Shown: in pieces, positions 38,871 to 58,807 of the stretch
Layout of the letters: each line of letters begins with the position of its first letter
Position numbering within the stretch: the stretch's first letter is position 1
Assembly: GCA_902559815.1 (NCBI GenBank)
Contig: CACEJE010000004.1
Span: forward strand, 1,372-65,371
Source of the DNA: an uncultured Thiothrix sp.
GTDB taxonomy: Bacteria > Pseudomonadota > Gammaproteobacteria > Poriferisulfidales > GCA-002705445
DNA length: 64,000 bases
Direction: 5' to 3'
Notes under the pieces: generated by a model
What the model saw: the letters and a program-made list of their open reading frames with translations, nothing else
Databases searched by the model: none
Told to the model about the DNA's origin: nothing
Translations under genes and position numbers: made by a program

Positions 38871-38936
38871 CTCATATAAATTGCTTTATATCTTTATTGT
38901 GTTATGTTTAATTTTTTAATTGTGAGATTAAATATT

Positions 38937-39278
38937 ATGACCGAAGATCTATCTAAGAAGAAGTGTGTTCCCTGCGAAGGAGGTATTCCGCCTTTTACAA
39001 TAGAGCAAATTAATGAATATCTGAAGAAAGTTGATGGCTGGGTTCTTAAGCAAAATGAAGAGATGCAATATTATTTATTTAAGGAATTTGCTTTTAAGGA
39101 TTTTTTGGAAAGTCAAAAATTTGTAAATATTGTCGGTGATATATCTGAAACAGAAGGACATCACCCTGATTTAACTTTTGGGTGGGGGTACGCAACAGTG
39201 AAAATTTACACACATGCAATCAAAGGATTAGCTGAGAGTGATTTTATTCTTGCCTCTAAAATAGATAAAAAAGCATAA
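38937..39278 (+). CDS. phhB: pterin-4-alpha-carbinolamine dehydratase
   Basis: The 113-aa product from ATG 38937 (MTEDLSKKKCVPCEGG...) has the PCD signature EGHHPD...W....V...TH. The ORF-track start 38904 is an over-extension. Confidence 0.85.
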   Translation: MTEDLSKKKCVPCEGGIPPFTIEQINEYLKKVDGWVLKQNEEMQYYLFKEFAFKDFLESQKFVNIVGDISETEGHHPDLTFGWGYATVKIYTHAIKGLAESDFILASKIDKKA

Positions 39279-39317: not shown

Positions 39318-40004
39318 ATGGAAGAAATTTTTTATAACACGGCAGTATTAGCTATATTACAAATTATTGCTATAGATATTGTATTAGGAGGAGATAATGC
39401 AATTATTATCGCACTAGCTTGTAAAAACCTTCCAGAAAAACAACGTAAACTTGGAATTTTTTATGGTGCTTTAGGAGCCATAATTTTAAGAGTTATTATG
39501 GTTTTTTTTGCATCTATGTTATTAGCTATTCAAGGTTTAAAAATAGTTGGAGGGGTTTTATTAATTTGGATTGGTATAAAGCTAATAATTGATAACACAA
39601 AAACTCAAGATCTGTCTGTTAATCAACATGACAATCTTGCTGGCGCTATAAAAACTATTATCTTAGCAGACTTAATTATGAGCTTAGATAATTCATTAGG
39701 TATTGCTGCTGTTGCAGATGGAAATATATATTTAGTAATATTTGGAGTTCTCTTTAGTGTCCCAATAATTATCTGGGGAAGCAAATTTATTTTAAAATGT
39801 ATAGATAAATTTCCTATAATTATACTATTGGGTGGTGGTCTCTTAGGATGGATAGGTGGTGATATGTTGCAGACAGATATTTATATTACAAATAATAATT
39901 ATATACCTGAAAATTTTAATAATTTTGTATTACCTTTTTTATTTGGTTCTTTTACAATAATTTTTTCTTTCTTTTTCGGGGGGTTAAAATTATTTAAGCG
40001 GTAA
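39318..40004 (+). CDS. TerC/YjbE-family integral membrane protein
   Basis: 228 aa with the duplicated TerC motif GGDNAIIIALA ... SLDNSLGIAAVA and about 7 TM segments. Confidence 0.85.
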   Translation: MEEIFYNTAVLAILQIIAIDIVLGGDNAIIIALACKNLPEKQRKLGIFYGALGAIILRVIMVFFASMLLAIQGLKIVGGVLLIWIGIKLIIDNTKTQDLSVNQHDNLAGAIKTIILADLIMSLDNSLGIAAVADGNIYLVIFGVLFSVPIIIWGSKFILKCIDKFPIIILLGGGLLGWIGGDMLQTDIYITNNNYIPENFNNFVLPFLFGSFTIIFSFFFGGLKLFKR

Positions 40005-40577
40005 GTTTTTAACTTCTTTCATTAAGTACCTGTTAATATATTTGTATAATTCTGTAAATGGGGTTCCAGGTATAAATATTTTTTCAACATTATTTTCTTT
40101 ATCTAAAAGATATATATTTGCTGTGTGATTAACAGTGTATTTATTACTGTCACTATCATTATTTTGATAACTGTAATATACGTGATACTGGTTTGAGACT
40201 TTTTCTATTTGTTCTTGTGATCCAGTTAAACCTACAATTCTTTTATCAAAAAAAGAAAGATAGTTTTTTAATAACTCAGGAGTGTCTCTTTTAGGATCTA
40301 CTGTTATAAATATTGGTTCTAAATTTTTCGATAAACCACGAAGTTTATGCAATAGATTTGAAACATCGGACAAAGCAGTAGGACAGATATCTGGACAATT
40401 TAAAAAGCCAAAAAAAATAATTTTAACTTTTGAAGACTCTGATAACACGTATTTCTCGTTATTATAGGTTTGAAGAACAAAATCCCCACCAATTCTAGCG
40501 TGGGATATATTATTAGTAATTAAAACAATAACTAAGAATGCATACTTAATAAACAAGTTAAAATAATATGTTTTCAT
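39990..40577 (-). CDS. SCO1/SenC-family copper chaperone (canonical CxxxC)
   Basis: 195 aa with an N-terminal membrane anchor and a thioredoxin fold carrying FGFLNCPDICP and a downstream His (VNHTANIYL). It is divergent from the SBP56 gene. The 3' end overlaps the TerC gene by 15 nt. Confidence 0.85.
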   Translation of the reverse strand: MKTYYFNLFIKYAFLVIVLITNNISHARIGGDFVLQTYNNEKYVLSESSKVKIIFFGFLNCPDICPTALSDVSNLLHKLRGLSKNLEPIFITVDPKRDTPELLKNYLSFFDKRIVGLTGSQEQIEKVSNQYHVYYSYQNNDSDSNKYTVNHTANIYLLDKENNVEKIFIPGTPFTELYKYINRYLMKEVKNLPLK

Positions 40578-40638
40578 ATATGTGTAATCTGATTTGTATA
40601 ATTGGTTAATTTATAGCTTCTAATTTACTTATATAGCC

Positions 40639-40666
40639 TTGACGTAAAAGCTTAATAGTTCATAAT
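40639..40666 (+). promoter_or_regulatory. candidate sigma70 promoter of the methanethiol-oxidase operon
   Basis: TTGACG, 16 nt, then CATAAT, 38 nt upstream of ATG 40705. A GAGGAAG SD precedes the ATG. Consensus match only. Confidence 0.35.
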
Positions 40667-40704
40667 ATAACATTCAAGAATAAAATAACAATCGAGGAAG
40701 AGCT

Positions 40705-42057
40705 ATGTATTTAAGAAAGTTTGGGATTTCAATATTGGGAGCTGTAGCGTTTATTTTTAGTTCGCTATCTTTTGCTGATGAAACATGTATGTCACCATAT
40801 ATGGCTAAAATTGTCGGCCAAGAAGATTATGTTTATGTCTGGACACTAGGTGTTGAAGGTCTTGGAGATGAGCAAGATAAATTAGTTACAATTGATGTTA
40901 ATCCAAAGTCAAAAACTTACGCTAAAGTTGTAAGTGTTCTATCCGTTGGCGGAAGAAATGAAGCACATCATTCAGGACTAAGCGATGATAGAAAATATTT
41001 ATGGGCTGGTGGATTAGATAGCAACAAAATTTTTATCTTTGATGTTCATTCAAACCCAAGAAAACCTACACTTCATAAAGTTATAACAGATTTTGTTGAA
41101 AAAACTGGTGGAGTTGTTGGTCCTCATACTTTCTATGCATTACCTGGAAGAATTATGGTTTCTGGTCTTTCAAATAACACAGATAATGGTGGTAGAACTG
41201 CTTTAGTTGAATACAACAGTAAAGGAGAGTTCATAGCTACACACTGGCTTCCAACAGACGGTGATCTCAGAGGCGCTAAAAAAACTGGAAAATACGCCGA
41301 TGGATATGGATATGATGTGCGCGTTCAACCAAGAAGAAATATAATGCTTACATCTTCATTTACTGGCTGGTCAAACTATATGATGGATTTTGGTCAAATG
41401 TTGCAAGATGGTGAAGCTATGAAACGATTTGGAAATACTATGGTTGTCTGGGATCTTCATTCAAGAAAACCTAAGAAAGTTTTAGATGTTCCAGGCGCGC
41501 CGCTAGAAATTAGATGCGCATGGGGTGCTAATAATAATTATTGTTTCACAACAACTGCTTTAACCTCAAAAATTTGGTTGATTTATGAAGATGATAATGG
41601 TGAATGGCAAGGTAAAGCTGTAGCAGATATTGGTGACCCAGCAAAAGTACCATTACCAGTTGATATTTCAATAACATCTGATGATAAAGGTTTATGGGTA
41701 GATACATTTATGGATGGTAAAGCACGATACTTTGATATATCTGACCCACATAATCCAGTTCAAGTTTATGAAGAGCAAATTGGTTCTCAGGTAAACATGA
41801 TTTCTCAAAGTTGGGATGGCAAGAGAGCATATTTCTCTACTTCGCTTCTAGGAAATTGGGATAAAACTGGAGAAGCAGATGAGCAATGGGTAAAATTATA
41901 TGATTGGGACGAAAATAGTAAAGAACTTACTCATAAATGGACTATCGATTTCTATAAAGAAAAATTAGGTAGAGCTCATCAAATGAGATTCGGTGCTTAC
42001 TCATTGTATTCAAGTACCACAGATAATAAAAAAGCAGTAACCTTATTAGATAAGTAA
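40705..42057 (+). CDS. mtoX: selenium-binding protein (SBP56) family, periplasmic methanethiol oxidase candidate
   Basis: 450 aa with a signal peptide (…SSLSFA/DE) and SBP56-family blocks: GYGYDVRVQPRRNIMLTSSF, LEIRCAW and DISITSDDKGLWVDTFMDGKARYFDISDPHNP. It is clustered with SCO1 and MauG/CCP homologues. Confidence 0.85.
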   Translation: MYLRKFGISILGAVAFIFSSLSFADETCMSPYMAKIVGQEDYVYVWTLGVEGLGDEQDKLVTIDVNPKSKTYAKVVSVLSVGGRNEAHHSGLSDDRKYLWAGGLDSNKIFIFDVHSNPRKPTLHKVITDFVEKTGGVVGPHTFYALPGRIMVSGLSNNTDNGGRTALVEYNSKGEFIATHWLPTDGDLRGAKKTGKYADGYGYDVRVQPRRNIMLTSSFTGWSNYMMDFGQMLQDGEAMKRFGNTMVVWDLHSRKPKKVLDVPGAPLEIRCAWGANNNYCFTTTALTSKIWLIYEDDNGEWQGKAVADIGDPAKVPLPVDISITSDDKGLWVDTFMDGKARYFDISDPHNPVQVYEEQIGSQVNMISQSWDGKRAYFSTSLLGNWDKTGEADEQWVKLYDWDENSKELTHKWTIDFYKEKLGRAHQMRFGAYSLYSSTTDNKKAVTLLDK

Positions 42058-42086
42058 TTTATTAATATCTAATACAGTGATAGAAT

Positions 42087-42114
42087 AAAGGCTAATTAAC
42101 GTTAGCCTTTTTTT
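42087..42114 (+). terminator. rho-independent terminator/attenuator after the SBP56 gene
   Basis: A perfect 9-bp stem AAAGGCTAA / TTAGCCTTT with a 6-nt loop TTAACG, followed by TTTT. It abuts the ATG (42115) of the next gene. Confidence 0.6.
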
Positions 42115-42825
42115 ATGATGATAAATATTTTTTTAAAATGTATATTCTTTTTTGCTTTTTTGCATCCAACATATGCAAATAATGATCTTCAAGCCGAACG
42201 AGATAAAATAAAAAGCGAAAGAAATTCTCTTGCTGTAGGCTGGAGAGACAACCTAGATTTTAAATTACCAAAACCAGGCTCTTATAAGCTTTACAATATA
42301 AGAGAATCTGGAAATGGCAAAGTAATTGATGAAAAAGGCAACGAAATATATTTGCATGACGCTATGAAAGGGAAGATTACGCTTTTAAGTTTTATATACA
42401 GTAATTGCACGGATACAAATGGTTGCCCATTAGCCACTTCTGTTTTTTACAAAATACAAGAAAAATTAAAAAATAATAAAAAAATACTATCAAAACTAAA
42501 AATGATTAGCTTGAGTTTTGATCCTGAGTACGACACTCCCGAAGTTATGTCATTATATGGCAAAGACTTATCTTACATAGATGCAGAATGGAGTTTTCTA
42601 ACAACTAATTCAATGGATTCGTTAGAACCAATTTTAGAGAATTATGATCAGCCTGTAATCAGAAAATATAAAAATGATGGATCGTATGATGGTGTTGAAT
42701 CTCATTTGTTAAGAGTATATTTAATAGATGATAAAAAACTTATAAGAAATATATACAACGTTGATTTTTTGCATCCAGACCTATTGATAAACGATATAAA
42801 AACTTTATTATTGAATAATGGATAA
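42115..42825 (+). CDS. SCO1/SenC-like thioredoxin-fold protein with atypical CxxxxxC motif
   Basis: 236 aa with a signal/anchor sequence. LLSFIYSNCTDTNGCPLAT replaces the usual CPDxCP. Also present are SLSFDPEYDTPEV and a conserved His (ESHLLRVYLID). Confidence 0.7.
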   Translation: MMINIFLKCIFFFAFLHPTYANNDLQAERDKIKSERNSLAVGWRDNLDFKLPKPGSYKLYNIRESGNGKVIDEKGNEIYLHDAMKGKITLLSFIYSNCTDTNGCPLATSVFYKIQEKLKNNKKILSKLKMISLSFDPEYDTPEVMSLYGKDLSYIDAEWSFLTTNSMDSLEPILENYDQPVIRKYKNDGSYDGVESHLLRVYLIDDKKLIRNIYNVDFLHPDLLINDIKTLLLNNG

Positions 42826-44152
42826 AAAGTTACTAAAGACTATTTTTTACAGTTCTTTCTTAGCGATCATTTTATTTGCCATAACATCAAGTGGCTATAC
42901 AAATGCTGAGAATAATAGCTATACAGGTCCAGGAGATGATAAAACAGGTTATGACTCAAAAAATTATAAAACAAATTCATTAAGTTTAGATCATAGAGAA
43001 GGTAAAAAAGCCGATCTTATTAAATATGTAACTGTTAAACAACTTGGCTTACCAAACTTAGTTATACCAAGTGAGAATCCTATTACTAAAGAAAAAATCG
43101 ATTTAGGTAAAAAACTTTTTTTTGATAGGAGATTGTCTTTAAACAATACAATGTCTTGCGGTATGTGTCACGTGCCAGAACAAGGCTTTACTAGTAATGA
43201 AATTAAAACCGCGGTTGGTATTGAAGGTAGGTCAAATTTAAGAAATACACCTACATTATTAAATGTTGCATTTAGCAAGTTTTTATTTCACGACGCCAGA
43301 GAATATTCTCTTGAAGGGCAAGTTTGGCAACCAGTATTAGCGCACTCAGAAATGGCTATGCCATCTTTTGGCTTTACATTAAAGAAAATTAAATTAATTC
43401 CAGGCTACATAGAGCTATTTGAAAAGGCATTTCCTGGAGAAGGTGTAAGTATAGAAACTTTTGGAAAAGCAATCGCAAGTTACGAGAGATCCTTAATATC
43501 CGGAAATTCGTCTTTTGATAAATGGTACTTTGGAAAAGATGAAAATGCAGTTTCTGATGAAGTAAAAGAAGGATTTAAAGTATTTTCTGGAAAAGGTAAT
43601 TGTATAGCTTGTCATTCTGTAGGAAAAAATGAAGCTTTATTCTTTGACAATAAACTTCACAATACAGGCATTGGATACGCAGAATCAATGGGTCTATTAA
43701 ACAAAAAGAAAACTAAAGTACAGCTTGCACCAGGTGAATATGTTGAGGTAGATAATGAAATTATAAAAAGCGTAAATCAGCAAAAAAAATCTAATGATTT
43801 AGGTTTATATAGTATTACAGAAAATCCAAGCCATAGATGGTTATTTAAGACACCTACACTAAGAAATATATCTTTGACATCACCTTATATGCATAATGGA
43901 TCAATTAGCACATTGGAGGAGGTAATTGATTTTTATAATAATGGTGGAATAAATAATGAGTTACTTAGCCCTATGATTAAAAAGCTTAATTTAACGGATA
44001 TTGAGAAAAATAATCTTAAGATTTTTCTTGAATCTCTTGTTGGAGAAAATATTGAAGTACTGATAGCTGATGCACTTTCAACACCAGTAGGTGATTTAAC
44101 AAAAGATGATCCAAATTGGGCTAATAATACAGATATGGGATACAACAAGTAA
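42818..44152 (+). CDS. di-haem cytochrome c peroxidase / MauG family protein
   Basis: 444 aa with an N-terminal anchor or signal peptide, LFFDRRLSLNNTMSCGMCHV (haem 1), GKGNCIACHS (haem 2) and the C-terminal PYMHNGS..TLEEV. The ATG overlaps the upstream stop by 8 nt. Confidence 0.88.
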   Translation: MDKKLLKTIFYSSFLAIILFAITSSGYTNAENNSYTGPGDDKTGYDSKNYKTNSLSLDHREGKKADLIKYVTVKQLGLPNLVIPSENPITKEKIDLGKKLFFDRRLSLNNTMSCGMCHVPEQGFTSNEIKTAVGIEGRSNLRNTPTLLNVAFSKFLFHDAREYSLEGQVWQPVLAHSEMAMPSFGFTLKKIKLIPGYIELFEKAFPGEGVSIETFGKAIASYERSLISGNSSFDKWYFGKDENAVSDEVKEGFKVFSGKGNCIACHSVGKNEALFFDNKLHNTGIGYAESMGLLNKKKTKVQLAPGEYVEVDNEIIKSVNQQKKSNDLGLYSITENPSHRWLFKTPTLRNISLTSPYMHNGSISTLEEVIDFYNNGGINNELLSPMIKKLNLTDIEKNNLKIFLESLVGENIEVLIADALSTPVGDLTKDDPNWANNTDMGYNK

Positions 44153-44154
44153 TT

Positions 44155-44664
44155 ATGAACTTCCTAAAATATCTTTTTATATTTATATTTATTTTACTAA
44201 TGTCTTGCTCAGATAATAATAATCATCCTATGACAAAACTGGATAAAAAAGTTTCTGCTAATTTTAATTTACAAAAAATTGATGGAACATTTGTGATGTT
44301 AGAAGAATTAAGAGGCTCCTATATTCTTGTTAATTTTTGGGCAACTTGGTGTAAACCATGTGTTAGAGAAATACCTTCACTAAATAATCTCAGTAAGATT
44401 TACTCAAAAAATGATAATTTCAAAGTTATAGCAATAAACATAGGTCAAAAAAAAGATATAGTTAATAATTTCTTACAAAAAATAGGTGGAGTTGATTTTT
44501 TAATCTTGTTAGATGAAGAAATGAATTTGCCAGAGTGGGATGTCCAAGCTATTCCTACAACCTTTATAGTTGATAAAGAAGGTTTTATAATATTTTCCGC
44601 GCAAGGCGAAAGAGAATGGGATTCAGAAGAGTTTACTCAATTTATTGATTCTCTATTAGAATAA
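44155..44664 (+). CDS. TlpA/ResA-type thiol:disulfide oxidoreductase lipoprotein
   Basis: 169 aa with a lipobox (LLMSC) and a thioredoxin motif in NFWATWCKPCVREIP. It starts 2 nt after the CCP/MauG gene. Confidence 0.85.
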   Translation: MNFLKYLFIFIFILLMSCSDNNNHPMTKLDKKVSANFNLQKIDGTFVMLEELRGSYILVNFWATWCKPCVREIPSLNNLSKIYSKNDNFKVIAINIGQKKDIVNNFLQKIGGVDFLILLDEEMNLPEWDVQAIPTTFIVDKEGFIIFSAQGEREWDSEEFTQFIDSLLE

Positions 44665-44670
44665 AATTTT

Positions 44671-44943
44671 TTACTCAGATGTTGTTGGGTCTATAGTTCT
44701 TTTTACTGCGCTAATTTTATTTGCAGGAAAACCACCTTCTTTTGCATGTTCTTTAATTAAGTCTTCATTTGGAGCTATATATACACAATAAACTTTATCT
44801 TTAGTTACATAGCTTTCAACCCATTGAATCTCTGTTCCAAGATTTTTTAATACTGAACAAGATTTCTGTGAGATACCTTGAAGCTCGTCTGTAGTTAGTT
44901 TACCTGCATCAGGTATATCTCTTTCTATTATAAATTTTGGCAT
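44671..44943 (-). CDS. DUF4242-family protein
   Basis: 90 aa. MPKFIIERDIP.AGKLT..EL..IS.KS..VL..LG..IQW..SYVT.DK.YCVY.A match my recollection of DUF4242. Confidence 0.55.
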   Translation of the reverse strand: MPKFIIERDIPDAGKLTTDELQGISQKSCSVLKNLGTEIQWVESYVTKDKVYCVYIAPNEDLIKEHAKEGGFPANKISAVKRTIDPTTSE

Positions 44944-52884: not shown

Positions 52885-53535
52885 TTGAAAAACATAGATA
52901 TTTTAGTAGATAATGCGACTTGTCTGAGAGGCGACAATCTAATTTTTGACAATATAAGCTTTAATTTATCAAATGGTGAAATTTTGTTTATTATGGGTCC
53001 AAACGGATGTGGTAAAACCACTTTAATTAGATCTTTATGTGGAATACAACACCTAGAAAATGGCTGTATAAAAATTAATAATGTAAATATAAATAATCCA
53101 GAATGTAATTTTCTAGAAAATTTGGTTTATATTGGTCACAATGATAGTCTTTCTGAAAATCTCACTACCTATGAAAATTTAGAATATTTGAATAAGTTTG
53201 ACTTAAGTAACAAAGATGAATTTATTAGTAATCCCAATAAATTTTTAAAATTTTTTGACATAAGTAAATATAAAAATTATTTAGTTTCAGAGCTTTCACA
53301 GGGAAACAAAAAGAAAGTTGCTTTATCAAGATTATTATTCACGAATAAAAAAATATGGGTACTTGATGAGCCACTGAGTTTTTTAGATGAAGATAGTAAA
53401 AATAATTTAATAAAACTATTTTTAGATCATATAACTAATGGTGGTTTAATTGTTACATCGACACATATTGATTTTTCAAATTATTTTGAAAAATCAAAAT
53501 ATTTAAATATGAAAGGGATTAATATTAATGAATAG
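52885..53535 (+). CDS. ccmA: cytochrome c biogenesis haem-exporter ATPase CcmA
   Basis: 216 aa with a TTG start after AGGGA, Walker A GPNGCGKTT, signature LSQGNKKKVAL and Walker B WVLDEP. It is the first gene of the ccm cluster. Confidence 0.88.
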   Translation: MKNIDILVDNATCLRGDNLIFDNISFNLSNGEILFIMGPNGCGKTTLIRSLCGIQHLENGCIKINNVNINNPECNFLENLVYIGHNDSLSENLTTYENLEYLNKFDLSNKDEFISNPNKFLKFFDISKYKNYLVSELSQGNKKKVALSRLLFTNKKIWVLDEPLSFLDEDSKNNLIKLFLDHITNGGLIVTSTHIDFSNYFEKSKYLNMKGININE

Positions 53536-54190
53536 CATAATTTTCAAAAAAGAAATTTATACGTATTTTAGAAACTTGAATTATATCTTTTTACCATTAA
53601 TTTTCTTTTTCTTAGTAATATCTATTTTTCCTCTTGTTATCGGCCCTAACAAGTCACTTATAGCAAAAATTATCCCTGGGATAATCTGGATAACAATAAT
53701 TTTTACTAGTTTACTTAGTTCGTCAAATTTTTTTAAAGATGATTATAATAATGGGATAATCGAAATGTATTTAACGTCTGAAAAATCGATAGAATTTATT
53801 TTATTTTTAAAAATTATTATATGCTGGTTTTTTACAATTTTTCCAATTATCATTTTTATTCCTATTGTATCAATTATGTTTAATATATCATTACATACAT
53901 TAACAACTATTTTCTTAACATTACTCCTTGGAACACCTGTTTTAGTATCTATAGGTATATTTGGGTCTGCATTAACAATGGGTATTTCAAAGAATAATAT
54001 ATTAGGCCCTATTATAACTGTTCCCTTTTATATTCCTGTATTAATATTTTCTGCTAGCGCTATTGAATCTGTATCCAATGGTTTGCCATATGATCTGCAA
54101 ATCTATGTTTTGCTATCAATTTTACTATTAATACTACCCACTATGCCATATTTACTTAAATACACTTTGAGAATTAGTATAAATAATTAA
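53528..54190 (+). CDS. ccmB: haem exporter permease CcmB
   Basis: 220 aa with six TM segments. Its position and size match CcmB, and it overlaps ccmA by 8 nt. Confidence 0.88.
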   Translation: MNSIIFKKEIYTYFRNLNYIFLPLIFFFLVISIFPLVIGPNKSLIAKIIPGIIWITIIFTSLLSSSNFFKDDYNNGIIEMYLTSEKSIEFILFLKIIICWFFTIFPIIIFIPIVSIMFNISLHTLTTIFLTLLLGTPVLVSIGIFGSALTMGISKNNILGPIITVPFYIPVLIFSASAIESVSNGLPYDLQIYVLLSILLLILPTMPYLLKYTLRISINN

Positions 54191-54192
54191 TT

Positions 54193-54921
54193 ATGAATAT
54201 TTCAAAAATAGCAAATTTAAAATATTTTTATAAACATACTAAAAATGTTTCTAAAATTCTTTCTTTTATAACTTTTTCTTTGTTTATAGTTGGTATCTTT
54301 TGGGGACTATATATAGCTCCGAAGGATTATCTGCAAGGAGATAGTTATCGAATTATATATGTACACGTGCCAGCTGCTTGGCTTTCTTTACAAGTTTATA
54401 TAGTTATGGCTGTTACTGGGTTTATAGCATTAGTTTGGAAAATAAAAATTATGGAAATTATTAGTATTCAAAGTGCATCTATTGGTGCTTATTTTACCCT
54501 AATAGCTCTTGTAACCGGCATGATATGGGGTAAGCCTACTTGGGGAACCTATTGGGTATGGGACGCAAGATTAACCTCTGAATTAATACTCTTATTCTTG
54601 TATATTGGGATAATAGTTATTTATTCATCCTTCACTGATAAAAGACAAGGGGCAAAAATAGCAGCGCTACTAGCAATAGTAGGCTTAATTAATATCCCTA
54701 TAATTCATTATTCTGTAGAATGGTGGAATACATTGCATCAAGGCCCAACAGTTACAAAATTTGAAAAACCATCGGCCCACATTACAATGCTAATGCCACT
54801 TTTATATATGTTACTAGTTTTTAACTTGTATTTTGTAACAGTTTTAATAAAAAGAGTAAGATTAGGAATATTTCAAAGAGAAAAAAATACTAAATGGATG
54901 GAGAACTATCTTAATGATTGA
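54193..54921 (+). CDS. ccmC: haem lyase/exporter component CcmC
   Basis: 242 aa with the tryptophan-rich WWD motif WGKPTWGTYWVWDARLTS and conserved His residues. Confidence 0.93.
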   Translation: MNISKIANLKYFYKHTKNVSKILSFITFSLFIVGIFWGLYIAPKDYLQGDSYRIIYVHVPAAWLSLQVYIVMAVTGFIALVWKIKIMEIISIQSASIGAYFTLIALVTGMIWGKPTWGTYWVWDARLTSELILLFLYIGIIVIYSSFTDKRQGAKIAALLAIVGLINIPIIHYSVEWWNTLHQGPTVTKFEKPSAHITMLMPLLYMLLVFNLYFVTVLIKRVRLGIFQREKNTKWMENYLND

Positions 54922-55069
54922 GTTTCTGAGCATGGGAAAACATACAGCCTTTGTTTATACAGCATATGTATTTTCTGTAATAGTATTAGTAATTGGTTTT
55001 TATATCCCACATTTTATCTTAAATAGGGAAGTTAAGAAAAAAAAGAATGAAAATAACAAAGACAAATAA
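54914..55069 (+). CDS. ccmD: haem exporter protein CcmD
   Basis: Not in the ORF track. The 51-aa product MIEFLSMGKHTAFVYTAYVFSVIVLVIGFYIPHFILNREVKKKK... parallels E. coli CcmD ...EFFAMGGYAFFVWLAVV. It overlaps ccmC by 8 nt and ccmE by 23 nt. Confidence 0.75.
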   Translation: MIEFLSMGKHTAFVYTAYVFSVIVLVIGFYIPHFILNREVKKKKNENNKDK

Positions 55070-55496
55070 AAAACGTATTATTAAAATATTAGTATTCTTT
55101 TTTGCTATAACGAGTTTTAGTTCAATACTAATTTATGCTCTAAGCCAAAATATGATTTATTTTTATACACCCACACAAGTCTATAATAGTGAGGCACCAA
55201 TTGATTCTAATATAAGAGTAGGTGGAATGGTAAAAGTTAACTCAGTTAAAAAAATAAATAATAGCTTAAAAGTTAATTTTACAGTTCATGATTTAGAGCA
55301 GGAGCTTAATGTTACTTATACTGGGATACTTCCAGACTTGTTTGGAGAAGGGCAAGGAGTTGTAATGACAGGAAAATTAATAAGTAAAAAAATTTTTCTA
55401 GCAGAAGAAGTTCTAGCAAAACATGATGAAAATTATATGCCTCCAGAAGTTGCTGATATGATGAAAGAAAAAAACAAAGAGATGTTTAACAAATGA
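55047..55496 (+). CDS. ccmE: haem chaperone CcmE
   Basis: 149 aa with an N-terminal anchor, an OB-fold and the haem-binding His in LAKHDENYMPPEV. Confidence 0.92.
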   Translation: MKITKTNKKRIIKILVFFFAITSFSSILIYALSQNMIYFYTPTQVYNSEAPIDSNIRVGGMVKVNSVKKINNSLKVNFTVHDLEQELNVTYTGILPDLFGEGQGVVMTGKLISKKIFLAEEVLAKHDENYMPPEVADMMKEKNKEMFNK

Positions 55497-57382
55497 TAAC
55501 GGAAATTGGAAATATATTACTTTGTGTATCAGCAGCATTATCTCTATGTTTATTTTCATTTATTTTTTTAAAGAAAGTTATAAATATAGATAACTGTTTT
55601 CATTTTAGTAAAAATATATCTTTGATAATATTAATATCTTTATTATCTTCATTTTTATTATTATCATATGCTTTTTTAACTGATAATTTTTCTTTAAGAT
55701 ATGTAGCAACCAACTCAAACCTTACTTTAGAAAATATATATAAATTTTCTGCTGTATGGGGAGCGCATGAGGGATCTATTTTGTTATGGGTTCTTGTTCT
55801 TGCATTTTGGTGCTTTTCAATTGCTTTATTTTCAAAACATATTCCAAAAAAAATAATTGTGGATATGCTTGCAATTATGGGTATTTTGATACTTTTTTTC
55901 TTGCTCTTCATTCTATTAACATCAAATCCTTTTGATAGAATTTTCCCAATACCTTTAAATGGAAATGATCTAAATCCTCTTTTGCAAGATCCTGGGCTAA
56001 TAATTCATCCTCCAATGTTATACTTTGGTTATGTGGGAACAAGTGTTCCATTTGCCTTTGCTGTAGCTATTTTGATAAACGAAAATATTAAATCAGAGTG
56101 GTTATCGTGGCTAAGAAAATGGGTTATGGCTTCTTGGATGTTCTTAACTATTGGTATATCACTTGGAAGTTGGTGGGCTTACCATGAACTTGGTTGGGGA
56201 GGATGGTGGTTTTGGGACCCAGTAGAAAATGCATCTTTCATGCCTTGGCTCGCTATTACTGCTTTATTGCATTCAATAATTGTATCTGAAAAAAGAGGCA
56301 TATTTATAAGTTGGACGATTTTATTATCTATTTTAACTTTTTCTTTAAGTTTACTTGGAACATTTTTAGTAAGATCAGGAATTCTTGTTTCAGTCCATGC
56401 TTTTGCAAATGATCCAGAAAGAGGGCTATACATATTAGTTTTTTTGACAATAGTTATCGGCTTATCACTGTTACTATATTTTGTTAAATCCTCCAAGTTA
56501 ATAACTTATAGTAATTATAATATTTCTTCTAAAGAATTTATATTATTAATAAATAACTTATTTTTAACAGTAACAACATTTGCAATTTTACTAGGAACAT
56601 TATATCCGTTAATTTCAAGTACATTGGACCTTGGAAAAATATCAGTTGGCGCCCCATATTTTAATTTTATTTTTTCAGCGTTAACGCTGCCAATAGTATT
56701 TTTGATGTCGCCAGCAATATTTAGCGCTTGGAAAAAAACTAATTATAATCATTTGATAAAAAAACTAGGGTTATTTTTTATGTTTTCATTGATAATTACA
56801 TATTTCTTTTTACATTTTTATGTTGATGTAGAAAATTTTATTGTTTTTTTAGCTATCGTTATAGCAATATTTACTATTTTATCCTCATTATATAAGCTTT
56901 CTCAAACAAGAATTTTATCTGCAAATTTAATTTCACATATTGGAATAGGTGTATTGATTATTGGGATTACTATAAGCAATTATTATTCATCTCAACATGA
57001 GGTAATTATGAAAAAGGGTGCAAATATAGCAATTCAAGAATTTCAAATTGCATTTAATGATGTAAAAAATAAAGTTTCAAAAAATTATACTTCAAAAGTG
57101 GGAATTTTTGATTTATATGACAATAAAGATTATCTTATATCTTTTTTTCCTGAAAAGAGAATATATAATGTTCAAAAAAATATTATGACTGAAGCAGCAA
57201 TTCATTCAACATTAACAAGAGATATTTATGTCGCACTTGGAGAAAAAGTAAACGATAATTCGTGGGTTGTTCGTATATATTACAAGCCATTTATTCAGTT
57301 TCTGTGGCTCGGTGCTATATTAATGATATTGGGTGGTTTTTTTGGTATATTTGGCAACTTAAATCTTTTTAAAAAAAATTAA
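55493..57382 (+). CDS. ccmF: cytochrome c haem lyase subunit CcmF
   Basis: 629 aa and polytopic, with the WWD motif GWGGWWFWDPVENASFMPWL. Confidence 0.95.
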   Translation: MITEIGNILLCVSAALSLCLFSFIFLKKVINIDNCFHFSKNISLIILISLLSSFLLLSYAFLTDNFSLRYVATNSNLTLENIYKFSAVWGAHEGSILLWVLVLAFWCFSIALFSKHIPKKIIVDMLAIMGILILFFLLFILLTSNPFDRIFPIPLNGNDLNPLLQDPGLIIHPPMLYFGYVGTSVPFAFAVAILINENIKSEWLSWLRKWVMASWMFLTIGISLGSWWAYHELGWGGWWFWDPVENASFMPWLAITALLHSIIVSEKRGIFISWTILLSILTFSLSLLGTFLVRSGILVSVHAFANDPERGLYILVFLTIVIGLSLLLYFVKSSKLITYSNYNISSKEFILLINNLFLTVTTFAILLGTLYPLISSTLDLGKISVGAPYFNFIFSALTLPIVFLMSPAIFSAWKKTNYNHLIKKLGLFFMFSLIITYFFLHFYVDVENFIVFLAIVIAIFTILSSLYKLSQTRILSANLISHIGIGVLIIGITISNYYSSQHEVIMKKGANIAIQEFQIAFNDVKNKVSKNYTSKVGIFDLYDNKDYLISFFPEKRIYNVQKNIMTEAAIHSTLTRDIYVALGEKVNDNSWVVRIYYKPFIQFLWLGAILMILGGFFGIFGNLNLFKKN

Positions 57383-57383
57383 A

Positions 57384-57902
57384 ATGAACTTTAGGTTACC
57401 AACATTATCAATTGTACTTTTTTTGGGTATTATTTATTTTTTATATACAGGTTTAGATAAAGATCCAACGTTAATTCCTTCTCCACTTATTGGAAAAACA
57501 GTACCAGACTTTAAATCAACTGATTTAATTTCAGGGGAAGATATTACAAATAAAGAATTGTTGGGAAAATTTTATATTCTTAATGTTTGGGCGAGTTGGT
57601 GTTATGGATGTTCATTAGAACATAATCATTTAATGAATATATATAAAAATAATGAAATTGATATTTTTGGATTAAACTATAAGGATGAAAAAAACTCTGC
57701 AATAAATTGGCTTAAGGAAAGAGGAAACCCATATAAAAATGTTATAGTTGATGTAAATGGAAATATTGCAATTGACTATGGTGTATACGGCGCACCAGAG
57801 ACATTTATAATTAATGAAGATGGAGTAATAATTTATAAGCATGTTGGTCCAATAGACCAAAGTTTTTATAATAAAATTATATTACCATTAATGAAAAAAT
57901 GA
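57384..57902 (+). CDS. ccmG: thiol:disulfide oxidoreductase CcmG/DsbE
   Basis: 172 aa with a membrane anchor and WASWCYGC, plus GVYGAPETF. Confidence 0.9.
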   Translation: MNFRLPTLSIVLFLGIIYFLYTGLDKDPTLIPSPLIGKTVPDFKSTDLISGEDITNKELLGKFYILNVWASWCYGCSLEHNHLMNIYKNNEIDIFGLNYKDEKNSAINWLKERGNPYKNVIVDVNGNIAIDYGVYGAPETFIINEDGVIIYKHVGPIDQSFYNKIILPLMKK

Positions 57903-58807
57903 AAAAATTAATTTTATATTATATTGTGCTACTTATTTTTTCAAATAACCTGCACGCATTCGAAACAAAAAAATATAATGAGATTATTGAAAGCTTAAGG
58001 TGTTTGGTTTGTCAAAATCAATCACTTGCAGAATCAGACTCAAGTCTAGCTAAAGACCTCAGGTCAAAAGTTAAAGAGTTAATAAAAAATGGTAAATCCA
58101 GTGACGAAATATACAAATTTATGTCAGATAGATATACTGACTATGTTTTATATAATCCGCCTGTCAAAAAGTCCACAATTTTTCTTTGGTATGGTCCTTT
58201 TATAATTTTAGCAATATGTTTAATTTTTTTATTTTGGAAATTTGGTTTTAAAAAAAAGATTCATAAGGAAAATATTATTTATACAAAAAATAATAATGAA
58301 GAAGATTTTATTCAAGAGAATAAAATTAGTAATAAGAAAATTATTTTATTTTTATTGTTTTTTGTGCCTATTATATCAGTATCAATTTATTCATATTCAA
58401 GTGAATTGATGAGATATAAAATATCACATTTTTTTCAAAGTAAAGAGCCAGTTATTAATATAACAATACAGATCCATGATTCTTTATTAGACAAAATAAC
58501 TGGTAATGAAATACTATTTGTTTATGCTAGGAGATCTAGTGGTATGAGAGTGCCATTAGCTATCAACATTTTTGATGTAAAAAAACAAAAAAGAAATTAT
58601 AATGTTAAACTTGATAATACAATGTATATGATTAACAACCAAACACTGTCATCTACTAACGAAGTGATTATAGAGGCAAGAATTTCAAAGGAAAAAAAAG
58701 CTGCAGCTTCTCCTGGTGATTACATAGGAACTTCATTACCTATAGTTTTAGAATCATCTAATTATGTTTTATTAAAAATTGACTCAATAGTGACAAGTAA
58801 AAAATGA
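57899..58807 (+). CDS. ccmH: CcmH fused to a short CcmI-like C-terminal domain
   Basis: 302 aa. The N-terminal CcmH motif is LRCLVCQNQSLAESDS, followed by a TM segment. The C-terminal segment ILFVYARRSSGMRVPLAI...EARISKEKKAAASPGDYIG resembles the CcmI C-terminal domain. No TPR-like region is evident between them. Confidence 0.82.
   Translation: MKKLILYYIVLLIFSNNLHAFETKKYNEIIESLRCLVCQNQSLAESDSSLAKDLRSKVKELIKNGKSSDEIYKFMSDRYTDYVLYNPPVKKSTIFLWYGPFIILAICLIFLFWKFGFKKKIHKENIIYTKNNNEEDFIQENKISNKKIILFLLFFVPIISVSIYSYSSELMRYKISHFFQSKEPVINITIQIHDSLLDKITGNEILFVYARRSSGMRVPLAINIFDVKKQKRNYNVKLDNTMYMINNQTLSSTNEVIIEARISKEKKAAASPGDYIGTSLPIVLESSNYVLLKIDSIVTSKK

Follow-up and report, generated by a model that had tools for sequence, protein, structure and literature searches.

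Methanethiol is a central intermediate of the marine turnover of dimethylsulfoniopropionate and dimethylsulfide, and MtoX, an enzyme of the SBP56 family, is its periplasmic, copper-dependent oxidase, which yields formaldehyde, H2S, and H2O2. In Ruegeria pomeroyi DSS-3 (SPOA0269-0271) and in Hyphomicrobium sp. VS, mtoX is followed on the same strand by a gene encoding an SCO protein and then by one encoding a di-haem protein (Eyice et al. 2018, PMC5739008). The function of SPOA0269 as a methanethiol oxidase has genetic proof (PMC5739008). A gene for a TlpA-like thioredoxin was drawn in both mto clusters of Methylophaga thiooxydans (Kroeber & Schaefer 2019, PMC6548844). Two questions have been standing since 2018: how copper is delivered to the periplasmic oxidase, and whether the enzyme has a cofactor made by the MauG homologue. 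Here, we analyze an mtoX cluster with the same gene order in a stretch of 64,000 nucleotides (hereafter the window, positions 1372-65371 of contig C4) of an uncultured Thiothrix sp., the genome of which has 0.9 Mb, is about 80% complete and contains about 30% G+C.

Our preferred reading, to which we assign a probability of about three in four, is that this locus is a bona fide mtoX-SCO1/senC-mauG(-tlpA) operon of the published type, in its fullest form, whose helper proteins mature MtoX. The observations behind it are gene content, gene and residue conservation, and phyletic coupling, and it is from these that we infer the biochemical roles. Genes were called with the open reading frame (ORF) listing of the window, and families were assigned with Pfam and NCBIfam profile scores. 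This reproduced the five genes described in the first-pass annotation, their motifs and coordinates, the 8-nt overlap between the SCO-like and the di-haem genes (42818-42825), and the 2-nt gap between the di-haem and the thioredoxin genes (44153-44154). The junctions had been described as tight. This holds for these two, but not for the junction between mtoX and the SCO-like gene, where a 57-nt spacer includes a hairpin. For comparison, we used 400 evenly drawn genomes of Gammaproteobacteria (401 for the MtoX count), 41 genomes of the order of the window, whose families we label f1 to f4, and 14 control genomes for one neighboring family, DUF4242. Neighborhoods were counted in 58 well-flanked species-level mtoX loci and in 19 genomes of the class sample. 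The five-gene arrangement recurs in dozens of species-level genomes, far beyond chance, and mtoX precedes SCO1/senC and mauG homologues on the same strand in 55 of the 58 loci.

The SBP56 protein (40705-42057, plus strand) scores 759.1 bits with the equivalog model NF052453, whose cut-off is 650, which was confirmed on the genome. Its identity to R. pomeroyi SPOA0269 is 68.8% by tblastn and 67.4% in a global alignment, and no other SBP56 protein of the plasmid collection exceeds 30%, leaving a clear gap from MtoX. The signal sequence ends in SFA, before DETC, and the mature N-terminus, ADETC.SPYM, is invariant in 10 orthologues and common to R. pomeroyi. The copper ligands proposed for the enzyme are, in Hyphomicrobium numbering, His89, His90, His140, and His412. 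The candidate ligands here, H88, H89, H141, and H425, do not vary among 10 orthologues and recur in R. pomeroyi, and H425 is the presumed equivalent of His412. We take the SBP56 protein to be a true MtoX, given its equivalog score and its identity to the genetically validated enzyme of R. pomeroyi. The first-pass annotation had made the same assignment, and the protein does not fall outside the MtoX clade. MtoX is present in 40 of the 41 genomes of the order and in 31 of the 401 evenly drawn Gammaproteobacteria. Two genomes of one genus (G192, contig C9, and G358, contig C2; loci L171, L172, and L179) encode two identical-scoring copies of mtoX about 16 kb apart. One copy is accompanied by sco/mauG, a further MauG-like paralogue, and a divergent SCO1, and no helper genes lie within 8 kb of the other (L171).

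The gene after mtoX (42115-42825, plus strand) encodes a SCO-like protein, a putative copper chaperone that exceeds the PF02630 gathering cut-off of 22.8 bits with a score of 51.6. It aligns to the Sco protein of B. subtilis, with the copper-ligand histidine kept and two residues inserted between the cysteines (motif NCTDTNGCP). The resulting spacing is C98-x5-C104, not the CxxxC of the PF02630 copper site. C98, C104, and H197 are invariant among orthologues, and the C-x5-CP loop is found in 83 of the 87 mtoX-linked orthologues and in R. pomeroyi SPOA0270 (there LTCGDVNGCPLA). The protein is likely to act like a Sco, but it belongs to a distinct subfamily. This subfamily is strongly coupled to the oxidase: among the 400 genomes of the class sample it occurs in 31, namely in 30 of the 31 MtoX-positive genomes and in 1 of the 369 MtoX-negative ones (Fisher's test, p = 7e-43). 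In both exceptions, one each way, the gene lies at a contig end. In most of the class-sample genomes that encode this SCO, it is fused to the MauG domain in open frames of 612-750 aa, and the overlapping sco and mauG genes of the window are a split form of this fusion. Family f3 has mtoX alone, and we considered it as a case of MtoX without helpers. This was ruled out, since the C-x5-CP SCO and di-haem genes are present elsewhere in those genomes, as a pair that is intact in all 8 of the f3 genomes for which the pair region was fetched.

The di-haem protein (42818-44152, plus strand; PF03150, 166.6 bits) has haem-binding motifs at C114 and C262 (CGMCH and CIACH, respectively). Its Tyr373 aligns with Tyr294 of MauG and with the corresponding Tyr of MbnH (6e1c), where bacterial cytochrome c peroxidases have a Met, and this Tyr is kept in 78 orthologues as well as in the R. 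pomeroyi protein. The protein is thus of the His-Tyr type of MauG and MbnH; the first-pass annotation had placed it in the CCP/MauG family. Its best NCBIfam matches are MbnH and MauG, and the peroxidase subfamily model gives 25.7 bits. On these scores, we regard it as a relative of MauG and MbnH and a member of neither family. Ahead of the CCP_MauG domain there is an N-terminal extension (residues ~39-80, 42818-43060) with conserved G39, D40, Y45, Y50, T52, R60, and G62, which corresponds to the linker region of the fused SCO-MauG proteins. Neither a methylamine dehydrogenase gene nor one for an MbnP substrate was found among the neighboring proteins scanned with Pfam and NCBIfam, and the presumed substrate is MtoX. 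Taken together, the C-x5-CP SCO and the His/Tyr di-haem protein are, almost without exception, the obligate partners of MtoX, with near-perfect phyletic coupling. Three loci (L172, L177, and L179) have a second, separate MauG-like gene after the SCO-MauG fusion. The haem attachment that a di-haem protein needs is supplied by a complete ccmA-ccmB-ccmC-ccmE-ccmF-ccmG(dsbE)-ccmH operon elsewhere in the window (52885-58807, plus strand).

A canonical SCO1/SenC gene (39990-40577, minus strand; PF02630, 141.8 bits; motif FGFLNCPDICP) is divergent from mtoX. Its product has both the CxxxC motif (C61PDIC65) and the distal histidine (H151), and these residues are invariant in 41 clade members. The same divergent arrangement is found outside the family, in metagenome-assembled genomes of 1.1-2.8 Mb, with 37-46% identity. 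Larger genomes with this type of SCO1 often encode a second canonical SCO1 elsewhere (5 of 8). A maximum likelihood tree of 129 Sco proteins separated three groups: mtoX-adjacent canonical proteins (31 rows, support 99/96), canonical proteins encoded elsewhere (11 rows, 98/89), and the C-x5-CP subfamily. In the class sample, 11 of the 19 genomes have a canonical Sco with the motif CPD[IV]CP near mtoX, either divergent and upstream, in the operon after sco/mauG (e.g., L167 and L182), or 6.5 kb off. In a later tree, 10 of these 11 fall in the clade of the window protein (SH-like approximate likelihood ratio test, 95; 41 rows). Hence, the divergent SCO1 is a recurrent partner of mtoX belonging to an mtoX-linked clade. 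The claim that the locus has two non-equivalent SCO proteins is borne out, one being in this separate clade and the other in the conserved MtoX-coupled subfamily. In one genome (L166, 11424-11931), the in-operon canonical SCO1 that follows the SCO-MauG fusion is split into ORFs of 56 and 110 aa, and is possibly a decaying copy.

The genome encodes only two PF02630 proteins, both at this locus, and the same is true of congeners that are 98% complete. Its aa3 oxidase operon (contig C3, DUF2244-coxB-coxA-cox11-coxC-SURF1-cox15-ctaB) has no sco gene within it. Viewed by itself, this would make the divergent SCO1 look like a housekeeping chaperone for CuA. Since the genome has an aa3 oxidase and no other canonical SCO1, this protein cannot be called dedicated to MtoX. 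We considered that it could be a displaced gene of the cox operon and did not retain this idea: gene context was undecided, the "elsewhere" SCO1 genes of relatives are not cox-adjacent except in L169, and the tree gave two clades. The second SCO1 of L169, beside ctaB/coxA, groups with the "elsewhere" clade. Within the order, the sole type of canonical Sco kept in family f1 is the mtoX type, and in family f2 it is the other one. This pattern suggests that a single canonical Sco is able to serve both MtoX and the cytochrome oxidase. In the same aa3 operon, cox15/ctaA (L067, 4534-5566, minus strand) is split into overlapping ORFs of 203 and 151 aa that match the N- and C-terminal halves of PF02628; the split may reflect a frameshift, pseudogene formation, or an error of assembly.

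The last gene of the cluster (44155-44664, plus strand) encodes an extracytoplasmic thioredoxin of TlpA/ResA type with the motif WATWCKPC, which may be a lipoprotein (its N-terminus has a lipobox-like ...ILLMSC). It carries Redoxin, AhpC-TSA, and Thioredoxin_8 domains, and WC66KPC69 is invariant in 68 mtoX-adjacent homologues. Its scores are under the curated cut-offs for both TlpA (NF047696, 81.3 bits vs 230) and ResA (NF002854, 99.3 vs 170), and among solved structures it is most similar to ResA (87 bits) and then to TlpA (59 bits). We therefore call it TlpA/ResA-like, and its profile scores make it an orthologue of neither. It is distinct from CcmG, which is encoded in the ccmABCEFGH operon (52.9-58.8 kb), and no other TlpA/ResA-type thioredoxin was found in this genome. 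The gene follows sco-mauG in f4, in one f3 genome, in each of the 12 f2 genomes that were inspected, and in every f1 genome whose contig extends far enough, and it adjoins the mtoX cluster in 33 of the 58 loci and in 7 of the 19 class-sample genomes, i.e., in roughly 40-55% of clusters. Its conservation beside mtoX-sco-mauG in f1, f2, f4, and several other gammaproteobacterial families is in line with the first-pass annotation. This had also placed the gene outside the described set, which is incorrect since it was already drawn for M. thiooxydans in 2019 (PMC6548844). Finally, the two accessory genes had been described as dedicated machinery. We could not uphold this description, given that they encode the sole canonical SCO1 and the sole TlpA/ResA-type protein found besides CcmG in a genome whose aa3 operon lacks sco, that f2 has MtoX without the mtoX-type SCO1, and that the TlpA-like protein shows no phyletic coupling.

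The spacer between mtoX and the SCO-like gene holds a terminator-like hairpin with a T-run (42087-42114, plus strand; stem of 10 bp, loop of 4 nt). A hairpin followed by a U-run is found at the same place 3' of mtoX in 15 of the 15 loci examined, from several lineages, with differing stem sequences. The maintenance of the structure across lineages in spite of these differences fits a conserved attenuator or terminator, which probably uncouples the expression of the oxidase from that of the helpers, with high oxidase and low helper levels. On the other side of mtoX, the 127-bp divergent intergenic region (40578-40704) is the presumed promoter region of mtoX and SCO1. A sigma-70 scan of this region gave several matches facing mtoX (e.g., 40639-40666). 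As their count does not exceed that of shuffled sequence, we make no claim for a promoter.

Downstream of the cluster, and convergent with tlpA, is a gene for a small DUF4242/SCO4226-like protein (44671-44943, minus strand) of 90 aa and without signal peptide, scoring 97.9 bits with PF14026 (cut-off 28.5). Its identity across lineages is 62-96%, with C29, C53, and H66 invariant. It is single-copy in 39 of the 41 genomes of the order and absent from the 14 controls. The gene is directly upstream of mtoX in methanotrophs and unlinked in f2; in half of the f3 genomes inspected it adjoins the sco-mauG pair, which there is separate from mtoX. DUF4242 and MtoX occur together in 16 of the 400 genomes, where 2.8 would be expected (p = 7e-11, without correction for phylogeny). 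A search of solved structures with the DUF4242 sequence gave no meaningful match and did not recover SCO4226 itself, and a link between DUF4242 and mtoX was not found in the literature searched. The protein is likely to be an additional partner of the MtoX system, and it may have a role in metal handling or sensing.

The hairpin and the DUF4242 gene were absent from the first-pass annotation, as was a recurrent neighbor, a homologue of pterin-4a-carbinolamine dehydratase (38904-39278, plus strand; PF01329, 85.6 bits). In 25 of the 58 loci, this homologue is encoded upstream of mtoX or of the mtoX-type SCO1, and its convergent pair with SCO1 is intact in another lineage, whose genomes have about 1.1 Mb, even where 6.5 kb separate the pair from mtoX (L176 and L183). 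Between this gene and the divergent SCO1, the window has a gene for a putative metal-transport membrane protein of the TerC/YjbE family (39318-40004, plus strand; TIGR03717, 219.9 bits), whose 3' end overlaps the 3' end of SCO1 by 15 nt. Searches with tblastn located it at this spot in the genus of the window alone; the family's other genera (L032 and L033) and other lineages gave no match there. An extended mtoX cluster of typical gammaproteobacterial form also occurs in a record entitled "uncultured Mycobacterium sp." (L100, CAXMUG010000020.1), which is probably a mislabelled bin.

How might these proteins work together? MtoX would be exported unfolded by the Sec pathway and would need copper in the periplasm. 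Most likely, the C-x5-CP Sco would insert the metal through Cys98, Cys104, and His197, and the His/Tyr di-haem enzyme, of MauG/MbnH type, would make an oxidative side-chain modification required for the active site. The canonical CxxxC Sco of the mtoX-linked clade would probably be a second copper donor or a relay, and the TlpA/ResA-like thioredoxin would probably keep the Sco cysteines reduced. The hairpin after mtoX probably sets the ratio of oxidase to helpers, keeping the latter well below the former. In this genome, neither the canonical Sco nor the TlpA-like protein has a counterpart of its own kind, and the aa3 operon lacks sco, so both may also serve the respiratory oxidase, which we regard as probable. 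A more ambitious version of this scheme, of which we found no description in the literature searched, is a multi-part metallo-maturase for periplasmic MtoX. Its center would be an obligate C-x5-CP Sco, joined or fused to a residue-oxidizing His/Tyr di-haem MbnH-like enzyme that builds the copper site. A canonical Sco clade specific to mtoX, a TlpA-like reductase, and the cytoplasmic DUF4242 protein, as a new copper-handling or copper-sensing partner with its Cys2His set, would complete it, and the aa3 oxidase would be a second client of the Sco and TlpA pair. We put this forward tentatively, since we give the complete scheme only a minor chance of being right.

Several results weigh against the interpretation of the locus as a maturation operon. 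SBP56 oxidases of the cytoplasmic clade, human SELENBP1 and RdMTO of Roseobacter denitrificans, are active when obtained from E. coli with copper alone, with neither MauG nor Sco (PMC13603461), meaning that a MauG-made cofactor is not intrinsic to the chemistry. The di-haem protein scores below the curated cut-offs of both MbnH (TIGR04039, 243.1 bits vs 362.85) and MauG (TIGR03791, 208.5 vs 443.85). In family f2, MtoX is retained although the mtoX-type canonical SCO1 is not, and the canonical SCO1 present there is of the other clade and encoded far away. There is no adjacent TlpA in Arenicellales and methanotrophs, and the R. pomeroyi cluster is also without it. The mtoX-type SCO1 and the TlpA-like helper are thus dispensable or replaceable, as f2 lacks the one and Arenicellales and methanotrophs lack the other next to mtoX. 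Furthermore, equally similar TlpA-like proteins are encoded in 252 of the 400 genomes, MtoX-negative ones included, so that this protein is tied to mtoX by adjacency only and has no MtoX-specific phyletic signal.

These observations are relevant to an alternative in which the divergent SCO1 and the TlpA-like protein are general assembly factors of cuproenzymes, acting mainly on the CuA center of the aa3 oxidase in the manner of the relay from TlpA through ScoI to CoxB in Bradyrhizobium, and in which their adjacency to mtoX is inherited gene order. The two PF02630 genes of this genome and of its most complete congeners, the aa3 operon (coxB-coxA-cox11-coxC-SURF1-cox15-ctaB) without sco, and the failure to find a TlpA-like protein apart from the CcmG of the ccm operon are what one would expect if the pair had to serve the respiratory oxidase. 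The distant canonical SCO1 of another clade in f2 and the unspecific distribution of the TlpA-like protein point in the same direction. Yet, the mtoX-adjacent SCO1 proteins form their own clade, and in larger genomes they coexist with a second canonical SCO1, which in L169 is the one beside ctaB/coxA. Copies of the mtoX type are also found within the operon, directly after sco/mauG (L167 and L182), and the adjacency outlasts extensive rearrangement of the surrounding genes. The two roles are compatible, and we consider it unlikely that these two proteins are purely general factors.

The other alternatives concern the core pair. H2O2 is a product that MtoX sets free in the periplasm (Eyice et al., PMC5739008), and the di-haem protein could be a cytochrome c peroxidase that clears it rather than a modifier of proteins. 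The N-terminal haem domain does best match bacterial cytochrome c peroxidases among solved structures (133-141 bits). But its distal ligand position has the conserved Tyr373, as in MauG and MbnH, instead of Met, the peroxidase model scores far below those of MbnH and MauG, the protein is mostly fused to a Sco domain, and in f3 it remains paired with Sco when unlinked from mtoX; a peroxidase role hence seems to us decidedly improbable. The f3 genomes also speak for a last possibility, in which sco-mauG(-tlpA-DUF4242) would be an independent periplasmic copper module, like MbnH/MbnP, with a target other than MtoX and co-located with it in some lineages only. There, the pair is unlinked from mtoX and, in half of the genomes examined, has DUF4242 beside it, and MbnH is the best family and structure match of the di-haem protein. 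However, every f3 genome with the pair also has mtoX, no MbnP-like gene was found among the neighbors scanned, and, among the 400, virtually all MtoX-positive genomes encode the C-x5-CP SCO, which is missing from all complete genomes that lack MtoX. Such independence would be very surprising. We therefore keep to the reading of the locus as an mtoX operon whose helpers would mature the oxidase.

The retention of the whole set in a genome of about 1 Mb, together with the presence of mtoX in 40 of the 41 relatives, supports methanethiol as a core substrate of this abundant, uncultured marine group. The window is one more instance of a widely recurring type of cluster and will not surprise specialists. 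Nevertheless, the literature we searched had no description of the mtoX-linked canonical Sco clade, of the strict coupling between C-x5-CP Sco and MtoX, of the conserved hairpin, or of the association with DUF4242. The coupling between MtoX and the pair of C-x5-CP Sco and di-haem proteins, the canonical Sco clade, and the co-occurring cytoplasmic Cys2His protein are targets for genetics and biochemistry in tractable strains.

How does the locus compare with the systems known so far? Relative to R. pomeroyi, identity is 67-69% for MtoX, 38% for the SCO protein, and 45% for the di-haem protein, and the C-x5-CP loop and the Tyr are the same. The R. pomeroyi cluster is preceded by a gene for an IclR regulator and followed by one for a glutathione-dependent formaldehyde dehydrogenase, and has no TlpA-like protein, second SCO1, or DUF4242, whereas the window has no regulator gene nearby. 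In M. thiooxydans DMS010, both mto clusters (1 and 2) encode a TlpA-like protein (cd02966, 164-168 aa, with a signal peptide) directly after sco1/mauG, as here; the helpers are predicted to be periplasmic and the genes are induced on dimethylsulfide (PMC6548844). There, sco1 and mauG are fused, and genes for a persulfide dioxygenase, a sulfide:quinone reductase, and a sulfate permease follow. In the window, sco and mauG are split, a canonical SCO1 is divergent, and DUF4242 and a Bax-inhibitor-type protein are encoded downstream. The TlpA-ScoI-CoxB system of Bradyrhizobium (1jfu and 4txo) also places a membrane-tethered thioredoxin beside Sco chaperones of Cys-Cys-His type, and both SCO proteins of the window match ScoI (Blr1131). 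The thioredoxin here, known from its sequence, is nearer to ResA than to TlpA (87 vs 59 bits), fails the TlpA cut-off, and has MtoX instead of CoxB as its presumed client. MauG, which acts in the biogenesis of tryptophan tryptophylquinone, and MbnH, which makes a kynurenine in MbnP, share with the di-haem protein two c-type haems, a Tyr at the position of MauG Tyr294, and a periplasmic location, and MbnH (6e1c) is the best match of its C-terminal part. The window protein differs from both by scores below their cut-offs, by the extension at residues ~39-80, by the usual fusion to Sco, and by having no methylamine dehydrogenase or MbnP nearby. In summary, the core of the locus is the operon of Eyice et al. 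(2018), its TlpA extension is that of Kroeber & Schaefer (2019), and the window is a fuller variant of a known operon type.

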